A stretch of DNA of 64,000 bases from Thermoanaerobaculia bacterium. Its GTDB lineage: Bacteria > Acidobacteriota > Thermoanaerobaculia > Gp7-AA8. Location: assembly GCA_017883205.1 (NCBI GenBank), contig JADGNZ010000001.1, positions 233,639 through 297,638 of the forward strand, in the 5' to 3' direction. Shown here piece by piece: positions 27,905-63,618 of the stretch. A program made the position numbers and the translations under genes. How positions within the stretch are numbered: the first letter of the stretch is position 1; every line of letters starts with the position of its first letter. The notes beneath the pieces were generated by a model. The model did no database searches. It saw nothing but the letters and a program-made list of their open reading frames with translations, and was not told the origin of the DNA.

Positions 27905-27981
27905 TCGGGCAGTAGCGCAGCCTGGTAGCGTACCTGAATGGGGTTCAGGTGGTCGGGGGTTCAAATCCCCCCTGCCCGACC
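27905..27981 (+). tRNA. tRNA-Pro (anticodon GGG), CCA encoded
   Basis: Hand-folded. Acceptor CGGGCAG/CTGCCCG, D-arm GCGC..GCGT, anticodon stem CCTGA/TCAGG with loop A-T-GGG-G-T (G37 fits Pro), T-arm GGGGG-TTCAAAT-CCCCC, discriminator A plus CCA. Confidence 0.9.
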
Positions 27982-28243
27982 AAATTGAACCCTCTCCGCA
28001 CCAACAAGTTGTCCGCATCATTCTCAACCGGGCAGTGAGCGTTCCGAGTCTAACGTCGTCTATTTCACGTCTATTCACAACGGTTCGGCCTTCGATTCCT
28101 CAACGACTCATATCGCTTCCGATCACCCCGAATTCAGCTGGTCGCCGGTTCCGCGCGAAGCCCAGGACACAGCAGCCGCGGTCGTCAACTGAACGGTCGC
28201 CGAGGGCGCGGGCTGATTTGCGTACGCGCAAGAGGCCGAACGA

Positions 28244-53777: not shown

Positions 53778-54100
53778 GAGTCGAAACCACTACCGAAATT
53801 GGTCTCGACCCAATTTCACGTGTCAAAACCAATACCGAAATTGGTCCCGACCCAATTTCAGGAGTCAAAACGACTACCGAAATTGGTTTCGACCCAATTT
53901 CACGTGTCAAAACCAATACCGAAATTGGTCCCGACCTAATTTCAGTAGTCAAAACGACCACCGAAATTGGTCCCGACCCAATTTCAGTAGTCAAAACGAC
54001 CACCGAAATTGGTCCCGACCCAAATTCAGTAGTCAAAACGACTACCGAAATTGGTCTCGACCCAATTTCAGGAGTCAAAACGGCTACCGAAATTGGTCTC
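53778..54100. repeat. tandem array, ~7.6 units of 42 bp, each unit with an 8-bp inverted repeat (gaaattgg N7 ccaatttc)
   Basis: Aligned by hand. A representative unit is (g/t)agtcaaaacgac(c/t)accgaaattggtc(c/t)cgacccaatttcag. The array lies in the convergent intergenic region between the kinase gene and the 54288 gene. Confidence 0.9.
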
Positions 54101-54287
54101 GCCCCAGGCACTTTCAAAGTAGGGCCAAGTGCAAAGTTGAAAGCGCCAGACGTTGACTGGATCAGGACACGGTGTCCCTTTAGTCACTTTCAACTTTAGA
54201 CCTGACCCCATTTTGAAAGTTGCTAACTGCTCCGACACCCGACACCCGATCAGCGACTCCCGGACAGACGTCCCACCCCCACCCAAA

Positions 54288-55367
54288 TCACTTCGTGGCC
54301 CGGTAGATCTTCTCGCGGTAACCGGCGACATCCTCGGTCACCTCGATGAATGGGAGCGCGAGATCGATCTCGAGGCACGCATCGCGATAGTGACGTGTTT
54401 CGAAGAGAGCGACGGCGTAGTAGTAGTGATAGCGCTCTTCACCCGGGCCGATCACGCCAACACCTCGAAACGCGCGTAACGCTCCGGCAAAGTCGCGTAC
54501 GCGGTACAGCCCTTCTGCCAGGCGCAGAGCCGGAGCATGTGAAAGCTGCGGCTCGCGAAGGAGCGCGTTGTAGATCGAGCGCGCGCTGTCAGGATCGCCG
54601 TTGTCGATTGCCTGCTGGGCCTCGTCGAGGCGCGCATCGATGGTCTTTTTCGCGGGTTGCTGCTTTGGCGGCACCATCGGAGCGATTGTCTGCAGGGTTC
54701 CGATGCTCGGCTGCGTGCTGGTCCCCTCACGAGGCGACCCCGGAGCCGGGTCCTTCGAAACGGGATGGTCCGTCGAAGGAGCGGAAGCGGCCGGGGAGTG
54801 CTCGTTGGCTGGTGGAGGAGATGACGGCGCAGGAGCCGGCCGCCTACTGTTTCGATCGGGAGCGTTCGCATCGCCGGCTTCGCGCGGAGCCGTTTCAGCA
54901 ACGTTCGGCTTCACGCTGGGAGTCGGTACTTCCACTCGGGGCCTTTCTTTCGCAGCGTCGTCCTGCATCTGTTCGGAGATGCCGAATACCACCGATTCCT
55001 TTTTTGTCAGCAGAGTCGCTGCCGCGCGAAGGAGCTCGGCTCGCAAGTCGTCGGGAATCGTCATCGACCGCAATCGCGGCTGAACCTTTTCTGCGGCGGC
55101 GATGCGGAGCAATGCGTCGCGAGTCTCGCTCTCGTGCCCAAGCCGGTTTGCTGCGATCGCCGCATAGACCTCGGCGGTCTCGAACTTCTCGATCTCCTCC
55201 ACGAGCCCGAATGCCGCCTTGTGCAGCTCGGTGAACGCCAGTTGGTAGTCCGCCGTCCGGAAATCGGCCATTCCCCGCGTGTAGAGCCGTTCGTAAAATT
55301 CGTCAGCGCCGCCAGCCAGTAAAACCGAGGGCGCTAACAATAAGAAGCCTACGGCGAGTTTGCGCAG
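54288..55367 (-). CDS. secreted hypothetical protein with TPR-like C-terminal region (start uncertain: CTG 55367 or TTG 55340)
   Basis: The N-terminal domain ...DEFYERLYTRGMADFRTADYQLAFTELHKAAFGLVEEIEKFETAEVYAAIAANRLG... is paralogous to the next gene. It has a Pro/Ala-rich linker. The TTG start would truncate the apparent signal peptide. Confidence 0.65.
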   Translation of the reverse strand: MRKLAVGFLLLAPSVLLAGGADEFYERLYTRGMADFRTADYQLAFTELHKAAFGLVEEIEKFETAEVYAAIAANRLGHESETRDALLRIAAAEKVQPRLRSMTIPDDLRAELLRAAATLLTKKESVVFGISEQMQDDAAKERPRVEVPTPSVKPNVAETAPREAGDANAPDRNSRRPAPAPSSPPPANEHSPAASAPSTDHPVSKDPAPGSPREGTSTQPSIGTLQTIAPMVPPKQQPAKKTIDARLDEAQQAIDNGDPDSARSIYNALLREPQLSHAPALRLAEGLYRVRDFAGALRAFRGVGVIGPGEERYHYYYAVALFETRHYRDACLEIDLALPFIEVTEDVAGYREKIYRATK

Positions 55368-57430: not shown

Positions 57431-58411
57431 CTAACGCGCAAGGCGGATGTCGCCACCCGAGCTGCGGAGCACGAGCTTCGGTCCACCGCCGTTCAACTTC
57501 CCGTTCAGCGATGAGTCGTCCTGCTTGCCCTGAATCGTGATTGGCACATCGGAGGCGACGTCGCCGCCGCTCGTGTGCGCATCGATGTCCAGTGATACGT
57601 TTGGCGCGACGTGGATCGTGATCCCTCCACCCGAGGTCGAGAGCCGCGAGTCGGCGTGAGGCTGACGCGAAACGCGTGCTTTGATCGATCCGCCGGAGGT
57701 CGAAGCATCGATGGCACCGCCTGCGTCGCCGATCTCGATCGAGCCGCCCGAGGTGTGCGCCTTTAGATCGGCCGTGGCGCGGCGAATGTCGATCGAGCCA
57801 CCCGAGGTCTTCGCAGTCAGCGAACCGGTGGCGTCGCCAACTTTGATGTCGCCTCCGGATGTGGAGAGTGTCGCGGTGGCGCGGGAACCGGCCATCGAAA
57901 CATCGCCTCCCGATGTGTGGGCATCTACGATGCCGTCGATCCTGCCGAGAGTTACATCGCCGCCGGAAGTGCGGACCGTTGCGCGTCCGGCGAGATCGGA
58001 GACGGCGATATCGCCGCCTGACGTCGTCAGATCGACGTTGTACTGCGCGGGAACATTGACGACGAACCGGACATCGAAGTCGTTGTTCCAGTGGAACCAC
58101 GATGTCGGATGGTTGTAACGGGCGCGAATGTGAACGTCGTTCTGCGCCTGCGAGAACTGGACATCGAAGTCTTTGAACAGTTCGTTTGCCCGTTCGTTGC
58201 TCGACGTCTTCGCGCGGCGGATCACATCGACGCTGACGTTGCTCGCTCCCGAGGTCACCTTGATGTCGCCGAGATCGGCGTCGATGGTGATCGTTCCGCC
58301 GGCGTGAACGTTGAAGTTGCGGTGGATGGGGCTGTCGATCGCGGCGTGCGCGGCGGAGATCGACGCCAGCCCGAGCACAGCCGCGAGCGCTGCAGTACGA
58401 ATGCGCGTCAT
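57431..58411 (-). CDS. DUF4097-type beta-strand repeat protein (putative adhesin), secreted
   Basis: 326 aa. The ATG is preceded by AGGAGG. It has a signal peptide. TSGGDI/TSGGSI repeats occur about every 20 residues. Confidence 0.8.
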   Translation of the reverse strand: MTRIRTAALAAVLGLASISAAHAAIDSPIHRNFNVHAGGTITIDADLGDIKVTSGASNVSVDVIRRAKTSSNERANELFKDFDVQFSQAQNDVHIRARYNHPTSWFHWNNDFDVRFVVNVPAQYNVDLTTSGGDIAVSDLAGRATVRTSGGDVTLGRIDGIVDAHTSGGDVSMAGSRATATLSTSGGDIKVGDATGSLTAKTSGGSIDIRRATADLKAHTSGGSIEIGDAGGAIDASTSGGSIKARVSRQPHADSRLSTSGGGITIHVAPNVSLDIDAHTSGGDVASDVPITIQGKQDDSSLNGKLNGGGPKLVLRSSGGDIRLAR

Positions 58412-58533
58412 GGTGTTGCCTCCTGTGCCTACTAACTACGCTGGCCGAGGCGAAAGGTTAGCAGGGGGGCACGGCCGCGGAGGGAACCTGCTGAAACGCG
58501 GAGAACGTTTAAGCGGACCGCACTGCGTGCATG

Positions 58534-59016
58534 TCATGTGTTCTTTAGCAGAGACGGACAGATGTGATGCTCGGGATCCCACCAGAGAACCTGAAGCACG
58601 GCGCCTTGACGAAAGCCCCAAATCCGCTCAGTTCCGGTCAAGTGCAAGGAGATCACCTCGTCTACGTCGAAGAGATTGAGCGACGAAAGATGATTCTGAG
58701 CCTCGTTACTGATTCGGGAAACGGGGACGGAGTGGTTGCGCTTCTTCGCGGTCACGAGGATGTCGCTCCACGTCATCGATTCGAAGTTGGCCAGCTTTGC
58801 GCGAATTTCCAGCAGCTTTGAGGGAGCGATATCCCGCCACCCGTGCGGGCTGACCAGTTTCAATCTCGCGACCCGCCATGAAGGTGAAAGGTGATTGGTA
58901 CTCGGGTCCGCAGCGACAATCGGAATCTTCCCAACTCTGGGCTCGATCCCGATGAGTGGTCGCTTCGCGATGTTCGGTTGAACGGCCGCCTTAGGACGTT
59001 TGTCTCGATTTGCCAA
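58534..59016 (-). CDS. hypothetical protein; candidate toxin partner of the upstream Panacea-domain antitoxin (start uncertain, TTG)
   Basis: 160 aa. It begins 6 nt after the antitoxin stop. The N-terminal ~45 aa are basic and disordered. The C-terminus is ...ISLHLTGTERIWGFRQGAVLQVLWWDPEHHICP.... No domain recognised. The local G+C is lower. Confidence 0.6.
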   Translation of the reverse strand: MANRDKRPKAAVQPNIAKRPLIGIEPRVGKIPIVAADPSTNHLSPSWRVARLKLVSPHGWRDIAPSKLLEIRAKLANFESMTWSDILVTAKKRNHSVPVSRISNEAQNHLSSLNLFDVDEVISLHLTGTERIWGFRQGAVLQVLWWDPEHHICPSLLKNT

Positions 59017-59022
59017 AGCTGC

Positions 59023-59460
59023 CTACGCGTGAGAGAGGCTACCGTAGTACTCCGCCATGGCTGCAGGCGTGATCTCGCTGTCTCCGCGTTCCGTGGGAGC
59101 GAGACCGCGCCGCGCATCTCTCCACGGCAGCTCGGAGTGCGTCAGATCGCTCAGCCACTGGGAGCTCTTGTCCCCGTAGAATCCGAGGACGGCATCGACC
59201 GTCTCACGCTGAACTGCGCTGAGGTTATCGGGATTGCCTCGTGGCCACTCTTTGATATCGAACATGCCTCGATGAACTGCGTAAAGGTGCGGCACGACCG
59301 GACCATTGATCCATGCTTCAATCCGGTCATGGAACAATGGCTTCTCGTCCCACACGAGTGACCAGGCCTGCGAGTAGTAAACCAGCTTTTGCAGCTTCAT
59401 CGCGGTCGTCCGGCCGAGCTTCTTCAGGATGTAGTTTGCGATGTCGTGTGCGTTGGCCAT
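59023..59460 (-). CDS. Panacea (DUF4065/SocA/GepA-like) domain antitoxin-type protein
   Basis: The ATG at 59460 gives MANAHDIANYILKKLGRTTAMKLQKLVYYSQAWSLVWDEKPLFHDRIEAWINGPVVPHLY..., which matches the DUF4065 core (KLQKLxYY...AWxxGPVxxxxY). The ORF-track extension to 59916 is Arg-rich and was trimmed. Confidence 0.85.
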   Translation of the reverse strand: MANAHDIANYILKKLGRTTAMKLQKLVYYSQAWSLVWDEKPLFHDRIEAWINGPVVPHLYAVHRGMFDIKEWPRGNPDNLSAVQRETVDAVLGFYGDKSSQWLSDLTHSELPWRDARRGLAPTERGDSEITPAAMAEYYGSLSHA

Positions 59461-59597
59461 AGCCTGAATCCTCTCGCCCCGATTGCGTTCGGGCTGTTCG
59501 AAATGTAACCGGAATTCTGCCACGGCTATGCCGGTGCGAGGCAAAGGTCTACGTGACGTGGAATCGAAAGCGTGTTGAGAAGGTCCCAACCCGTCCG

Positions 59598-60053
59598 CTA
59601 CTTCGGTCGCTCCCGCTTGATCGCGATCGGCGAGACCTGGCTGGAGATGTTGAACCATCCTTCGCCGGTCTTGATCCAGACGTCGCTGTAGCGAAGGTCG
59701 ACGACGACTCGTTCTCCCGCCTCCCTGTAGCGTTGGACGATGTGGCCGGTGACGATGGCGGTGCTGCCGTGCGCGTGGATCCGGACGTCGCTCGTCTCGT
59801 AGGGCTCGATGTAGGTTCCCCGTTTCTTCATCGACTCGATCAGCTCTGCTTTGGTCTGCAGCTCGCCGCTGCTCGTGATCCGAACGTAGTCGTCGGAGAG
59901 ATGGGTCCGGAACCACTCCGTATCCGCCATGTAGGTGGCGATGGCCATCTCGCGGTCGAGCTTTCTGATCGCCTGCTCATCGCTGGCGAAATTGGCGGCG
60001 GAGGCAGAAAGGGCGAGCAAGCCAACGGCGGCTGCGAGCAGGGCGCGTCTCAT
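59598..60053 (-). CDS. secreted NTF2-like (SnoaL/DUF4440-type) protein
   Basis: 151 aa with a signal peptide (LLAAAVGLLALSASA). Length and the pattern ...DDYVRITSSGELQTKAELIE...VWIKTGEGW... are typical of DUF4440-like proteins. Confidence 0.65.
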   Translation of the reverse strand: MRRALLAAAVGLLALSASAANFASDEQAIRKLDREMAIATYMADTEWFRTHLSDDYVRITSSGELQTKAELIESMKKRGTYIEPYETSDVRIHAHGSTAIVTGHIVQRYREAGERVVVDLRYSDVWIKTGEGWFNISSQVSPIAIKRERPK

Positions 60054-61510: not shown

Positions 61511-63181
61511 ATGACCATCGAAGCCCCGGAAAAACCGCGCGATTTCATCCGCGAGATCGTCGAGGAGGATCTCGCTGCCGGCAGGACCCAGCGCGTCATC
61601 ACCCGCTTTCCGCCCGAGCCGAACGGCTACCTCCACATCGGCCACGCCAAGTCGATCTGCCTCAACTTCGGCATCGCCAACGAGTACAACGGCCAGTGCA
61701 ATCTCCGATTCGACGACACGAACCCGACGAAGGAAGAGGTGGAGTTCACCGAGTCGATCAAGCGCGACGTGGCGTGGCTCGGTTTTTCCTGGGGCGAAAA
61801 TCTCCTTCACGCCTCGGATTACTTCGCGCAGCTTTACACCTGGGGCGAAGAGCTGATCAACGCGGGGAAGGCTTACGTCGACAGCTCGAGCGCCGATGAG
61901 ATGCGGGCCATGCGCGGCACGCTCACCGAGCCGGGAACCGATTCTCCGCATCGGTCACGTTCCATCGAAGAGAACCTCGATCTTTTTCGCCGCATGCGAG
62001 CGGGGGAGTTTCCCGACGGCGCGCAGGTGCTCCGCGCGAAGATCGACATGGCTTCGCCGAACATCAACATGCGCGATCCCGTGCTCTACCGGATCCGCCA
62101 CAAATCGCATGACCGCACCGGCGATGCGTGGCCGATCTATCCGATGTACGACTATGCCCACCCGCTCTCCGACGCCATCGAGGGGATCACCCACTCGCTT
62201 TGCACGCTCGAGTATGAGGATCATCGGCCGCTGTACGACTGGTTGATCGAAGACGTGTCCGTGCCATCGCGGCCGCGGCAATACGAGTTCGCACGGCTGA
62301 ATCTCAGCTACACCGTCATGTCGAAGCGCAAACTGCTGGGGCTGGTCACCGAGGGCCACGTGCACGGCTGGGACGATCCGCGCATGCCGACCATCGCCGG
62401 CTTGCGACGCCGCGGCTACACGCCCTCATCGATCCGCAACTTCTGCGAGCGCGTCGGCGTGGCCAAACGGGAGAACGTCATCGACGCGGGACTGATCGAG
62501 TTCTCCATTCGCGAGGATTTGAATCGCATCGCTCCGCGGGTGATGGGTGTTCTCGACCCGCTTCGCGTCGTCATCGACAACTATCCGGCAGGCGATACGG
62601 AATGGTTCGATACGCCGAACCACGTCGACGATCCGTCGCTGGGAACGAGAAGAGTTCCGTTCGCGAAGACGATTCTCATCGAGCGCGAGGACTTTCTCGA
62701 GGATCCGCCGAAGAAGTTCTTCCGGCTCGCTCCGGGCCGCGAAGTGCGGCTGCGATCGGCCTACTTCATCACCTGTACGAACGTCGTCAAGGACGATGCC
62801 GGCAATATCGTCGAGCTGCACGCGACGTACGATCCGGCCACGCGCGGCGGCGATTCACCCGACGGCCGAAAACCGAAAGCGACACTGCACTGGGTTGCCG
62901 CCGATCACGCCATCGACTGCGAAGTGCGGCTCTACGACCGTCTGTTCAAGTCGGAGAATCCCGAGGAGAGCGGCAATTTCCTCGATGATCTGAATCCGCA
63001 ATCGCTCCAGGTCGTGCAGGCCGCGAAGCTTGAGCCATCCGTTCGCGGCGCGCAGCCGCAATCGCGTTTTCAGTTCGAGCGGCTCGGCTATTTCTGCGTT
63101 GATTCCGACTCAACGCCGGACCGGCTGGTCTTCAACCGGACGGTGACGCTCAAGGATGCGTGGGCGAAGACGGCGAAGTAG
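61511..63181 (+). CDS. glnS: glutamine--tRNA ligase
   Basis: 556 aa. [17 protein letters not shown] (HIGH motif), VMSKR (KMSKS-type motif) and the GlnRS-type C-terminal anticodon-binding region are present. Confidence 0.93.
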
Positions 63182-63187
63182 GTTTCT

Positions 63188-63294
63188 GAGCACAGACAAG
63201 AGTGTCTGTGCCACATTGCTTCTGGCTTTGTGCTCAGACACTCCTGTGCCACGAGAAGTGAGTCAATGTGGCACAGACACTCTTGTCTGTGCTC
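63188..63294. terminator. perfect 30-bp inverted repeat (47-nt spacer) directly after glnS; hairpin/REP-like, possible terminator
   Basis: gagcacagacaagagtgtctgtgccacatt (63188-63217) is the exact reverse complement of aatgtggcacagacactcttgtctgtgctc (63265-63294). Each arm is internally palindromic (cacagaca..tgtctgtg). A partial third copy lies in the spacer. No clear T-run follows. Confidence 0.6.
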
Positions 63295-63381
63295 TTCACC
63301 AGTTTTCTTAAGCGTCCACCTTTTTCATCTGCTATTCTTGCGGCGGTCCAACGTCTATCTTTTTGAAAGGGAACGTGCGCG

Positions 63382-63618
63382 ATGGCTGTCTGCTGGCGTT
63401 GTCCGAGGTGCGGTGAGGTGAGCTGCGAGGATGACGTGAATGCCACCGGCAACCCTGTGGCTTGCGATCATTGCGAACGGCCATTCCCGCCGCATGAGAC
63501 GCTCTGCTCGGTCTGCGACGCGCCCAATCCCTGGCAGCGCCGCGACACGCTGCACTTCCTCTGCCGCGAGTGTGGCACGACGCAGACCTACTTCTCGCAC
63601 CTTCCGATTGCCGGCTGA
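63382..63618 (+). CDS. small Cys-rich zinc-ribbon protein
   Basis: 78 aa with four CxxC pairs (CWRCPRC, CDHC, CSVC, CREC). Composition is plausible. The SD is weak. Confidence 0.55.
   Translation: MAVCWRCPRCGEVSCEDDVNATGNPVACDHCERPFPPHETLCSVCDAPNPWQRRDTLHFLCRECGTTQTYFSHLPIAG

Follow-up and report, generated by a model that had tools for sequence, protein, structure and literature searches.

Does a stand-alone Panacea-domain gene in the genome of a Thermoanaerobaculia bacterium belong to a toxin-antitoxin cassette, and is the protein encoded behind it a toxin of a new kind? The gene lies on contig JADGNZ010000001.1, within a 64-kb stretch of DNA that was analyzed as a whole (the window), and is followed by an open reading frame (ORF) of 160 aa. 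An earlier reading made from the letters of the window (the sequence-only reading) had proposed the pair as a candidate new member of the PanAT class, in which a Panacea-domain antitoxin (PanA) is coupled to a toxin (PanT), here possibly of an undescribed fold. We give a probability of roughly 0.65 to the reading that the locus is a PanAT cassette of the catalogued PanT cluster T1 and that its PanT is an mRNA endoribonuclease of the RelE/BECR (Barnase/EndoU/Colicin/RelE) type, held by PanA binding. In the ORF listing of the window, the pair consists of two minus-strand ORFs, antitoxin first:

59460..59023, minus strand: panA, ATG start, 145 aa; stand-alone Panacea (DUF4065/SocA-like) protein, presumed antitoxin
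59022..59017, minus strand: spacer of 6 nt between the panA stop codon TAG (59025..59023) and the toxin start codon TTG (59016)
59016..58534, minus strand: toxin ORF, TTG start, 160 aa, C-terminal end ...ISLHLTGTERIWGFRQGAVLQVLWWDPEHHICPSLLKNT
59016..58897, minus strand: toxin residues 1 to 40; basic, proline-rich, predicted-disordered N-terminal extension
58896..58534, minus strand: toxin residues 41 to 160 and stop codon; predicted RelE/BECR-like alpha+beta domain, PanT cluster T1

Family membership and synteny of the gene pair

Sequence comparison shows clear homology between the 160-aa protein and members of PanT cluster T1, which was already catalogued by Kurata et al. in 2022. BLASTP showed it to be 51% identical, over 118 aa ungapped (E = 3e-48), to WP_017744647.1 from Scytonema hofmannii PCC 7110, which is listed as a predicted PanT of cluster T1 (pT1/T1) with the PanA WP_017744648.1 in the order A|T (Dataset S1, PMC8832971). 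The profile of the toxin family also matched a second T1 member, YP_006560566.1 of Salmonella phage Emek, which directly follows a DUF4065 gene (hhalign, 96.4%, E = 1e-9, 148 columns; hmmsearch, E = 1.4e-10). Since the protein is homologous to described T1 members, the proposal of a new PanT family does not hold, by the very condition that the sequence-only reading had set for its refutation. The earlier remark that the C-terminal block could be assigned to no toxin family was right as far as Pfam is concerned but overlooked the homologous T1 PanT. Our searches of the literature recovered no later paper characterizing T1, and none of the six T1 accessions that we sought in the NetFlax supplements was present, nor was a mapping of T1 to a NetFlax node.

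The annotated start of WP_017744647.1 deserves a comment. RefSeq gives this protein as 118 aa, which leaves a 98-nt gap in Dataset S1. It shares a single 90%-identity cluster with a homolog from Scytonema sp. NUACC26, and its mates in that cluster are 148 aa long and start just after PanA. The true start therefore probably lies upstream of the annotated one, and some database entries would have missed the N-terminal tail.

The upstream protein is a Panacea protein and nothing else. Its sequence includes KLQKLVYYSQAW and EAWINGPVVPHLY as well as the GPV motif (G53-P54-V55), and it matched Pfam SocA_Panacea (PF13274) over residues 23 to 113 (E = 1e-17; 65.5 bits; cutoff, 25.7), with neither a helix-turn-helix nor a PAD1 N-terminal domain. 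It also matched PHROG family phrog_1281 (E = 1.5e-37) and had 7,978 homologs at E ≤ 1e-10, many of them named SocA-domain or DUF4065 proteins; its match to NCBIfam SocA_antitoxin (E = 1.4e-10) fell far below the curated cutoff. The sequence-only reading had described a 145-aa Panacea/DUF4065 protein ending 6 nt before a 160-aa ORF, in an antitoxin-first, two-gene operon whose PanA has no additional domain, and our coordinates, gene order, and Pfam results agree with it exactly.

Relatives of the toxin were collected in several ways. A word-based search found 20, a hidden Markov model built from the alignment of those 20 retrieved 2,487 representatives of clusters (E ≤ 1e-3), and 478 of the GTDB species genomes gave hits in a motif scan. 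Synteny was evaluated in 86 genome or metagenome loci (L001 to L086) and 23 loci on IMG/VR viral contigs. A PanA gene lay immediately upstream on the same strand in 85 of the 86 genome/metagenome loci and in all 23 viral-contig loci. With 108 of 109 loci syntenic, a chance adjacency of PanA and toxin is ruled out, and the expectation that toxin homologs would be found next to Panacea genes elsewhere is borne out. The distance from the PanA stop codon to the nearest toxin start was between -23 and +21 nt in 82 of 85 loci, and when the ORFs flanking the pair in 84 loci were clustered, no third conserved gene emerged. Kurata et al. defined PanAT pairs by a gap no larger than 100 nt, conservation in at least two species, and a conserved operon of no more than three genes (PMC8832971); here, the gap is 6 nt, the pair is kept across many phyla, and no further gene is conserved with it.

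The flanks of the pair differed wholly between loci, and four distinct flanking contexts were seen. Nucleotide homology between the window and L001, which has an unrelated context, spanned exactly positions 58534 to 59463, i.e., both genes alone. The closest relatives, L007 and L008, share the flanks of the window; these orthologous Thermoanaerobaculia loci have 94% and 91% protein identity, with the 94%-identical toxin ortholog in L007. Because homology to L001 is confined to the pair and the flanks are shared with L007 and L008, we conclude that the two genes form a mobile cassette, inherited vertically within the lineage.

Fold and conserved residues of the putative toxin

Sequence searches offered little help with the domain itself. 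No Pfam family matched the toxin, 140 relatives searched at E ≤ 10 gave no consistent family, and searches of PDB chains with the toxin and with a 140-member profile returned only noise. Structure prediction was more informative. The full-length AlphaFold2 model was confident from about residue 40 onward, and a model of residues 41 to 160 based on the 140-sequence alignment reached a predicted local distance difference test (pLDDT) score of 94.2 and a predicted template modeling (TM) score (pTM) of 0.86. The N-terminal part of the modeled domain has a short strand (46 to 48), helices at 65 to 79 and 83 to 89, a strand at 94 to 98, and a helix at 104 to 112; the C-terminal part has three antiparallel strands (120 to 125, 131 to 137, and 140 to 147). 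In a Foldseek search of the PDB with the model of residues 41 to 160, about 45 of the top 50 hits were RelE, HigB, YafQ, YoeB, or ParE toxins, with a best E value of only 0.19 and target-normalized TM scores of 0.56 to 0.58 for RelE, HP0894, YafQ, and HigB. Another Foldseek run showed the same trend, and a Foldseek search of viral structures (BFVD) found nothing meaningful.

Profile comparisons point to the same superfamily. Toxin residues 58 to 152 aligned to positions 191 to 280 of the 284 positions of the PADLOC NsnC model (E = 1.3e-4), which was matched by 101 of the 140 family members (best E = 4e-9). The C-terminal region of NsnC is PB-BECR1, a BECR RNase domain that is closest to YafQ and has an H-R-H triad (PMC12065111). 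Residues 71 to 153 matched NCBIfam NF046006 (MAG6450_fam) with E = 2.6e-4 and 21.5 bits, below the curated cutoff of 40; across the family, 126 of 140 members matched this model at E ≤ 0.01 (best E = 4e-9), all of them distantly and below the cutoff. The toxin also matched phrog_8366 (E = 5.6e-9).

Five polar residues stand out in the alignment of 140 diverse members: E79, R131, D147, and H150 are invariant, and H95 is at least 90% conserved. The family signature is LWWDPxHx[VI]C. H95, R131, and H150 fit the H-R-H triad of PB-BECR1, and H150 is located just after the last strand of the toxin model. In YoeB, YafQ, and HigB, the catalytic C-terminal histidine likewise lies directly after the last strand. 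Based on the Foldseek list, the match to the C-terminal region of NsnC, and the conserved placement of H-R-H, the fold is probably a divergent RelE/BECR fold and not a new one, and an RNase role is predicted for T1. The suggestion of an undescribed fold is not supported, given the RelE, HigB, YafQ, and YoeB hits and the homology with the BECR domain of NsnC. The expectation that the downstream partner would be toxin-like fared better, as it agrees with the RelE-like fold of the model and with the invariant polar residues.

Two phage-borne relatives depart from this residue set. An unannotated PanA-T1 pair on a human gut phage contig (MT835822; L089:1692-2755) encodes a toxin that keeps the H, R, D, and H positions and has Ser at E79, so E79 may not be essential across the wider T1 cluster. 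In the Emek protein YP_006560566.1 (vB_SemP_Emek; L088:2258-2743), counterparts of E79, R131, and H150 are missing, and H95 and D147 are the only two of the five that are retained. Emek-type PanA-T1 pairs at ≥95% identity were present in 48 of 5,426 complete Escherichia coli genomes. On the chromosome of E. coli STEC346 (L090), the pair sits in a P22-like prophage immunity region beside arc, mnt, and ant. PGAP names the two genes of the E. coli Emek-type pair 'Panacea domain-containing protein' and 'hypothetical protein'. We considered whether WP_032219545.1, from these E. coli genomes, was the E. coli MOD1 T1 protein that has been assayed for toxicity, and rejected the identification, as the accession differs.

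Ahead of the domain, toxin residues 1 to 33 are rich in K, R, and P and have pLDDT values of <50 in the full-length model, as expected from the basic, disordered N terminus that the sequence-only reading described. A K.P...K.P pattern leading into a PSWR motif is conserved in family alignments, and the toxin ORF is open up to the PanA stop codon in nearly all loci. Compared with the 94%-identical L007 ortholog, the ratio of nonsynonymous to synonymous substitution rates (dN/dS) was ~0.17 for the N-terminal extension, a sign of purifying selection despite its disorder, and 0.045 for the domain. Given this dN/dS value, the open frame, and the conserved pattern, the ~40-residue extension is real coding sequence. 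As to its role, our guess is that it serves as a leash for docking to PanA or binds RNA or the ribosome. The sole locus lacking PanA, on a 2.3-kb contig of an Iningainema sp. metagenome-assembled genome (MAG) (L028:1665-2021), encodes a 118-aa toxin homolog that begins at the PSWR motif, having lost the N-terminal tail, with its catalytic motifs intact; an unrelated 448-aa ORF precedes it.

Local layout, proposed mechanism, and alternative explanations

The pair is preceded by a short intergenic region:

59461..59597, minus strand: region 5' of panA, 137 nt, from the stop codon of the DUF4440 gene (59598) to the panA ATG (59460)

This region is presumed to hold the promoter and the 5' untranslated region of the bicistronic operon. 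Because homology to L001 ends at position 59463, it lies outside the conserved cassette. A scan of positions 58300 to 59700 found no sigma-70-like promoter or intrinsic terminator consensus, and an inverted-repeat scan of positions 58400 to 59650 found no convincing operator. The 6-nt spacing between panA and the toxin ORF suggests translational coupling. The panA stop codon and the toxin TTG share a reading frame, two codons apart (59014 to 59025), so that the two proteins are kept apart by a single stop codon. Among 85 related loci, 29 have the two genes in frame, close to what chance would give, and the shared frame is therefore probably not meaningful. A fusion of PanA and toxin by stop-codon read-through was rejected on the same count.

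The pair was said to sit in a patch of lower GC content. The dip is real (0.575 versus a window mean of 0.622, standard deviation of 0.03) but modest, as it lies at the 8th percentile among windows of the same size. GC content at third codon positions is 0.67 and 0.73 in the two genes, below that of all five neighbors (0.73 to 0.85), which encode a DUF4440/SnoaL-like protein, a GDSL lipase, a DUF4097 protein, an amine oxidase, and a glutaminyl-tRNA synthetase (GlnRS). The window has two further short GC dips, at 54000 to 54300 (0.52) and 63150 to 63450 (0.54), compared with ~0.62. A tRNA-Pro gene (GGG) at 27906 to 27982 is the sole RNA gene detected in it.

From the observed gene structure, synteny, and mobility, together with the homology to T1, the C-terminal region of NsnC, and MAG6450_fam and the conserved residues, we infer how the cassette might operate. 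PanT would be translated from its TTG start by coupling to panA across the 6-nt gap. Free PanT may be an endoribonuclease that cuts mRNA, perhaps at the ribosome in the manner of RelE-family toxins, and would thereby be toxic by arresting translation. PanA may keep PanT inactive through direct protein-protein binding, following type II logic, since neutralization by direct binding has been demonstrated for other stand-alone Panacea antitoxins (PMC10440598, PMC8832971).

Several observations weigh against an RNase toxin of this kind held by its PanA. At the sequence level, no RelE, ParE, YafQ, HigB, YoeB, or Gp49 family match was obtained (Pfam and PDB; E ≤ 10), the NsnC and MAG6450_fam matches of the toxin itself are weak (E of ~1e-4), with the MAG6450_fam score below the NCBIfam cutoff, and no Foldseek E value reaches significance (best, 0.19). 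The toxin gene at L028 is an orphan that lacks a PanA partner. In 84 of 85 loci, the toxin is less conserved than PanA (mean identities to the window proteins of 47.2% and 66.6%, respectively); an antitoxin that is better conserved than its toxin is unusual and the reverse of typical type II pairs. Published assays are a further difficulty. The Clostridium cadaveris T1 protein (WP_074844970.1) was toxic and was not neutralized by its PanA, and the T1 proteins of E. coli MOD1 (WP_077635758.1) and Emek were not toxic in E. coli (PMC8832971). As none of the three tested pairs showed both toxicity and rescue, T1 is still an unvalidated class of toxin-antitoxin systems.

These assays give some room to the view that the partner is a nontoxic RNA-binding or RNA-processing factor, or a frequently degenerate one, that merely travels with PanA. 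We consider this unlikely. In its favor, toxicity in E. coli was absent for two of the three tested T1 members, T1 still lacks a validated toxin-antitoxin pair, and the L028 orphan keeps intact motifs without a PanA. However, the C. cadaveris member was toxic, and the nontoxicity of Emek is not transferable to the window protein, since Emek has lost E79, R131, and H150 while the window toxin has all five residues; its degenerate active site is a possible reason for the negative result. PanA linkage in 108 of 109 loci and the strictly kept polar set also suggest an enzyme that has to be held in check. Far less probable still, and in our estimate close to negligible, is the original proposal that the 160-aa protein represents a new toxin family, possibly with an undescribed fold. 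The lack of a Pfam match for the protein or its 140 relatives, the lack of a PDB sequence match, and Foldseek E values of >0.1 would allow it. Against it stand the 51% identity to a listed T1 PanT and the profile link to a second T1 member, the family-wide matches to the C-terminal BECR domain of NsnC and to NCBIfam MAG6450_fam, and a Foldseek top list that consists almost purely of RelE-superfamily proteins with TM scores of >0.5.

An explanation that does not exclude a T1 RNase held by PanA is that the cassette is a phage defense (abortive infection) module, in which Panacea acts as a sensor and not as a labile antidote, and PanT remains bound and silent until a phage cue frees the RNase or activates it allosterically. 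We regard this as possible, although the odds are against it. The higher conservation of PanA than of PanT in 84 of 85 loci would fit a constrained sensor with a diversifying effector, and the effector domain is common to NsnC of the Menshen anti-phage system. Phages and prophages carry the pair (Emek, the gut phage contig, and the 23 IMG/VR contigs), the NetFlax authors favor a sensory role for Panacea (PMC10440598), and the failure of T1 in classical toxicity and rescue assays is compatible with a system that depends on a trigger. On the other hand, the papers that we consulted report no defense phenotype for any T1 pair, the window locus lies outside a defense island among genes for metabolic or secreted proteins, and the PADLOC models do not include the pair as such. 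In its most specific form, this idea would make T1 cassettes in general trigger-dependent anti-phage modules and not addiction pairs, with a highly conserved Panacea sensor, a faster-evolving RelE-like RNase effector of the kind used by NsnC, and the basic tail as a leash held by Panacea; we put it forward as a tentative and rather doubtful conjecture. If the conjecture were true, it would explain why T1, among the two largest PanT clusters, failed classical assays, and it would link two defense architectures through a shared RNase module.

Comparison with known systems

As a discovery claim, a T1 cassette in this genome matters little, since it adds one more member to a class of systems catalogued in 2022. 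Of the 1,268 pairs predicted by Kurata et al., 217 belong to T1 and 218 to the MqsR cluster T2, and these are the two largest clusters (PMC8832971). Their T1 pairs resemble the window pair in having a stand-alone 'noNTD' PanA, a gap of a few nucleotides, a hypothetical protein of ~150 aa, and the A|T order; 'A|T' and 'noNTD' hold for the T1 rows of Dataset S1 that were compared. Members of T1 occur in many phyla, among them Acidobacteria, Cyanobacteria, and Mollicutes, and in phages (PMC8832971), in agreement with the taxonomic range found here, and Thermoanaerobaculia MAGs, the lineage of the window's host, are absent from that data set. Tested T1 members are labeled as predicted 'mRNase' in supporting information (SI) Table S1 (PMC8832971); this label is all that we found, as our searches of Dataset S1 turned up no HHpred hit list for T1. 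Unlike the Emek member, which lacks three of the five conserved polar residues, the window toxin keeps them all, and the loss in Emek offers a testable reason for the published negative T1 assay.

In the Panacea half of the pair, the nearest point of comparison is SocAB of Caulobacter crescentus (type VI), whose antitoxin has the same Panacea/SocA domain and whose toxin, SocB, is unrelated to the window toxin. Other PanAs bind the toxin directly and do not act as ClpXP adaptors (PMC8832971), and a stand-alone Panacea can neutralize a toxin by direct contact (PMC10440598). The conserved basic tail and a PanA that is more conserved than its toxin bear on what the Panacea domain does.

In the toxin half, the predicted topology is similar to that of RelE, YoeB, YafQ, and HigB, with helices packed on an antiparallel sheet and a C-terminal His after the last strand. 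The YoeB site is Glu-Arg-His, and that of YafQ is His-Asp-His. The Glu/His/Arg/His set of the window toxin resembles both. The window toxin differs from the RelE family in an extra helix and strand insertion (95 to 112) and in an N-terminal extension of ~60 residues. The antitoxins differ as well: those of the RelE family are RelB, YefM, DinJ, and HigA, whereas that of the window is Panacea.

With the Menshen system (Li et al. 2025, PMC12065111), the window pair shares only the effector domain of NsnC. The window toxin lacks the inactive-PIN N-terminal domain of NsnC and has the ~40-residue disordered tail in its place, and its neighbors, unlike those in Menshen, include no NsnA (ParB-DUF262) or NsnB (ABC ATPase). 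With no inactive-PIN domain and neither NsnA nor NsnB nearby, membership of the pair in Menshen was rejected; the Menshen paper, for its part, makes no mention of Panacea (PMC12065111). MAG6450 appears in the literature as a conserved hypothetical protein of Mycoplasma agalactiae from a transposon screen, and the NCBIfam NF046006 model is confined to the C-terminal 103 positions. T1 is linked here to PB-BECR1 and MAG6450 from profile matches, a link that is mentioned in neither PMC8832971 nor PMC12065111 and is new; the residue set, the degenerate active site of the nontoxic Emek member, and the stronger conservation of PanA than of its toxin are further small additions. Through the link to PB-BECR1 and MAG6450, one of the two largest PanT clusters gains a concrete, if predicted, domain assignment as a RelE/BECR-like RNase with an E/H/R/D/H residue set.

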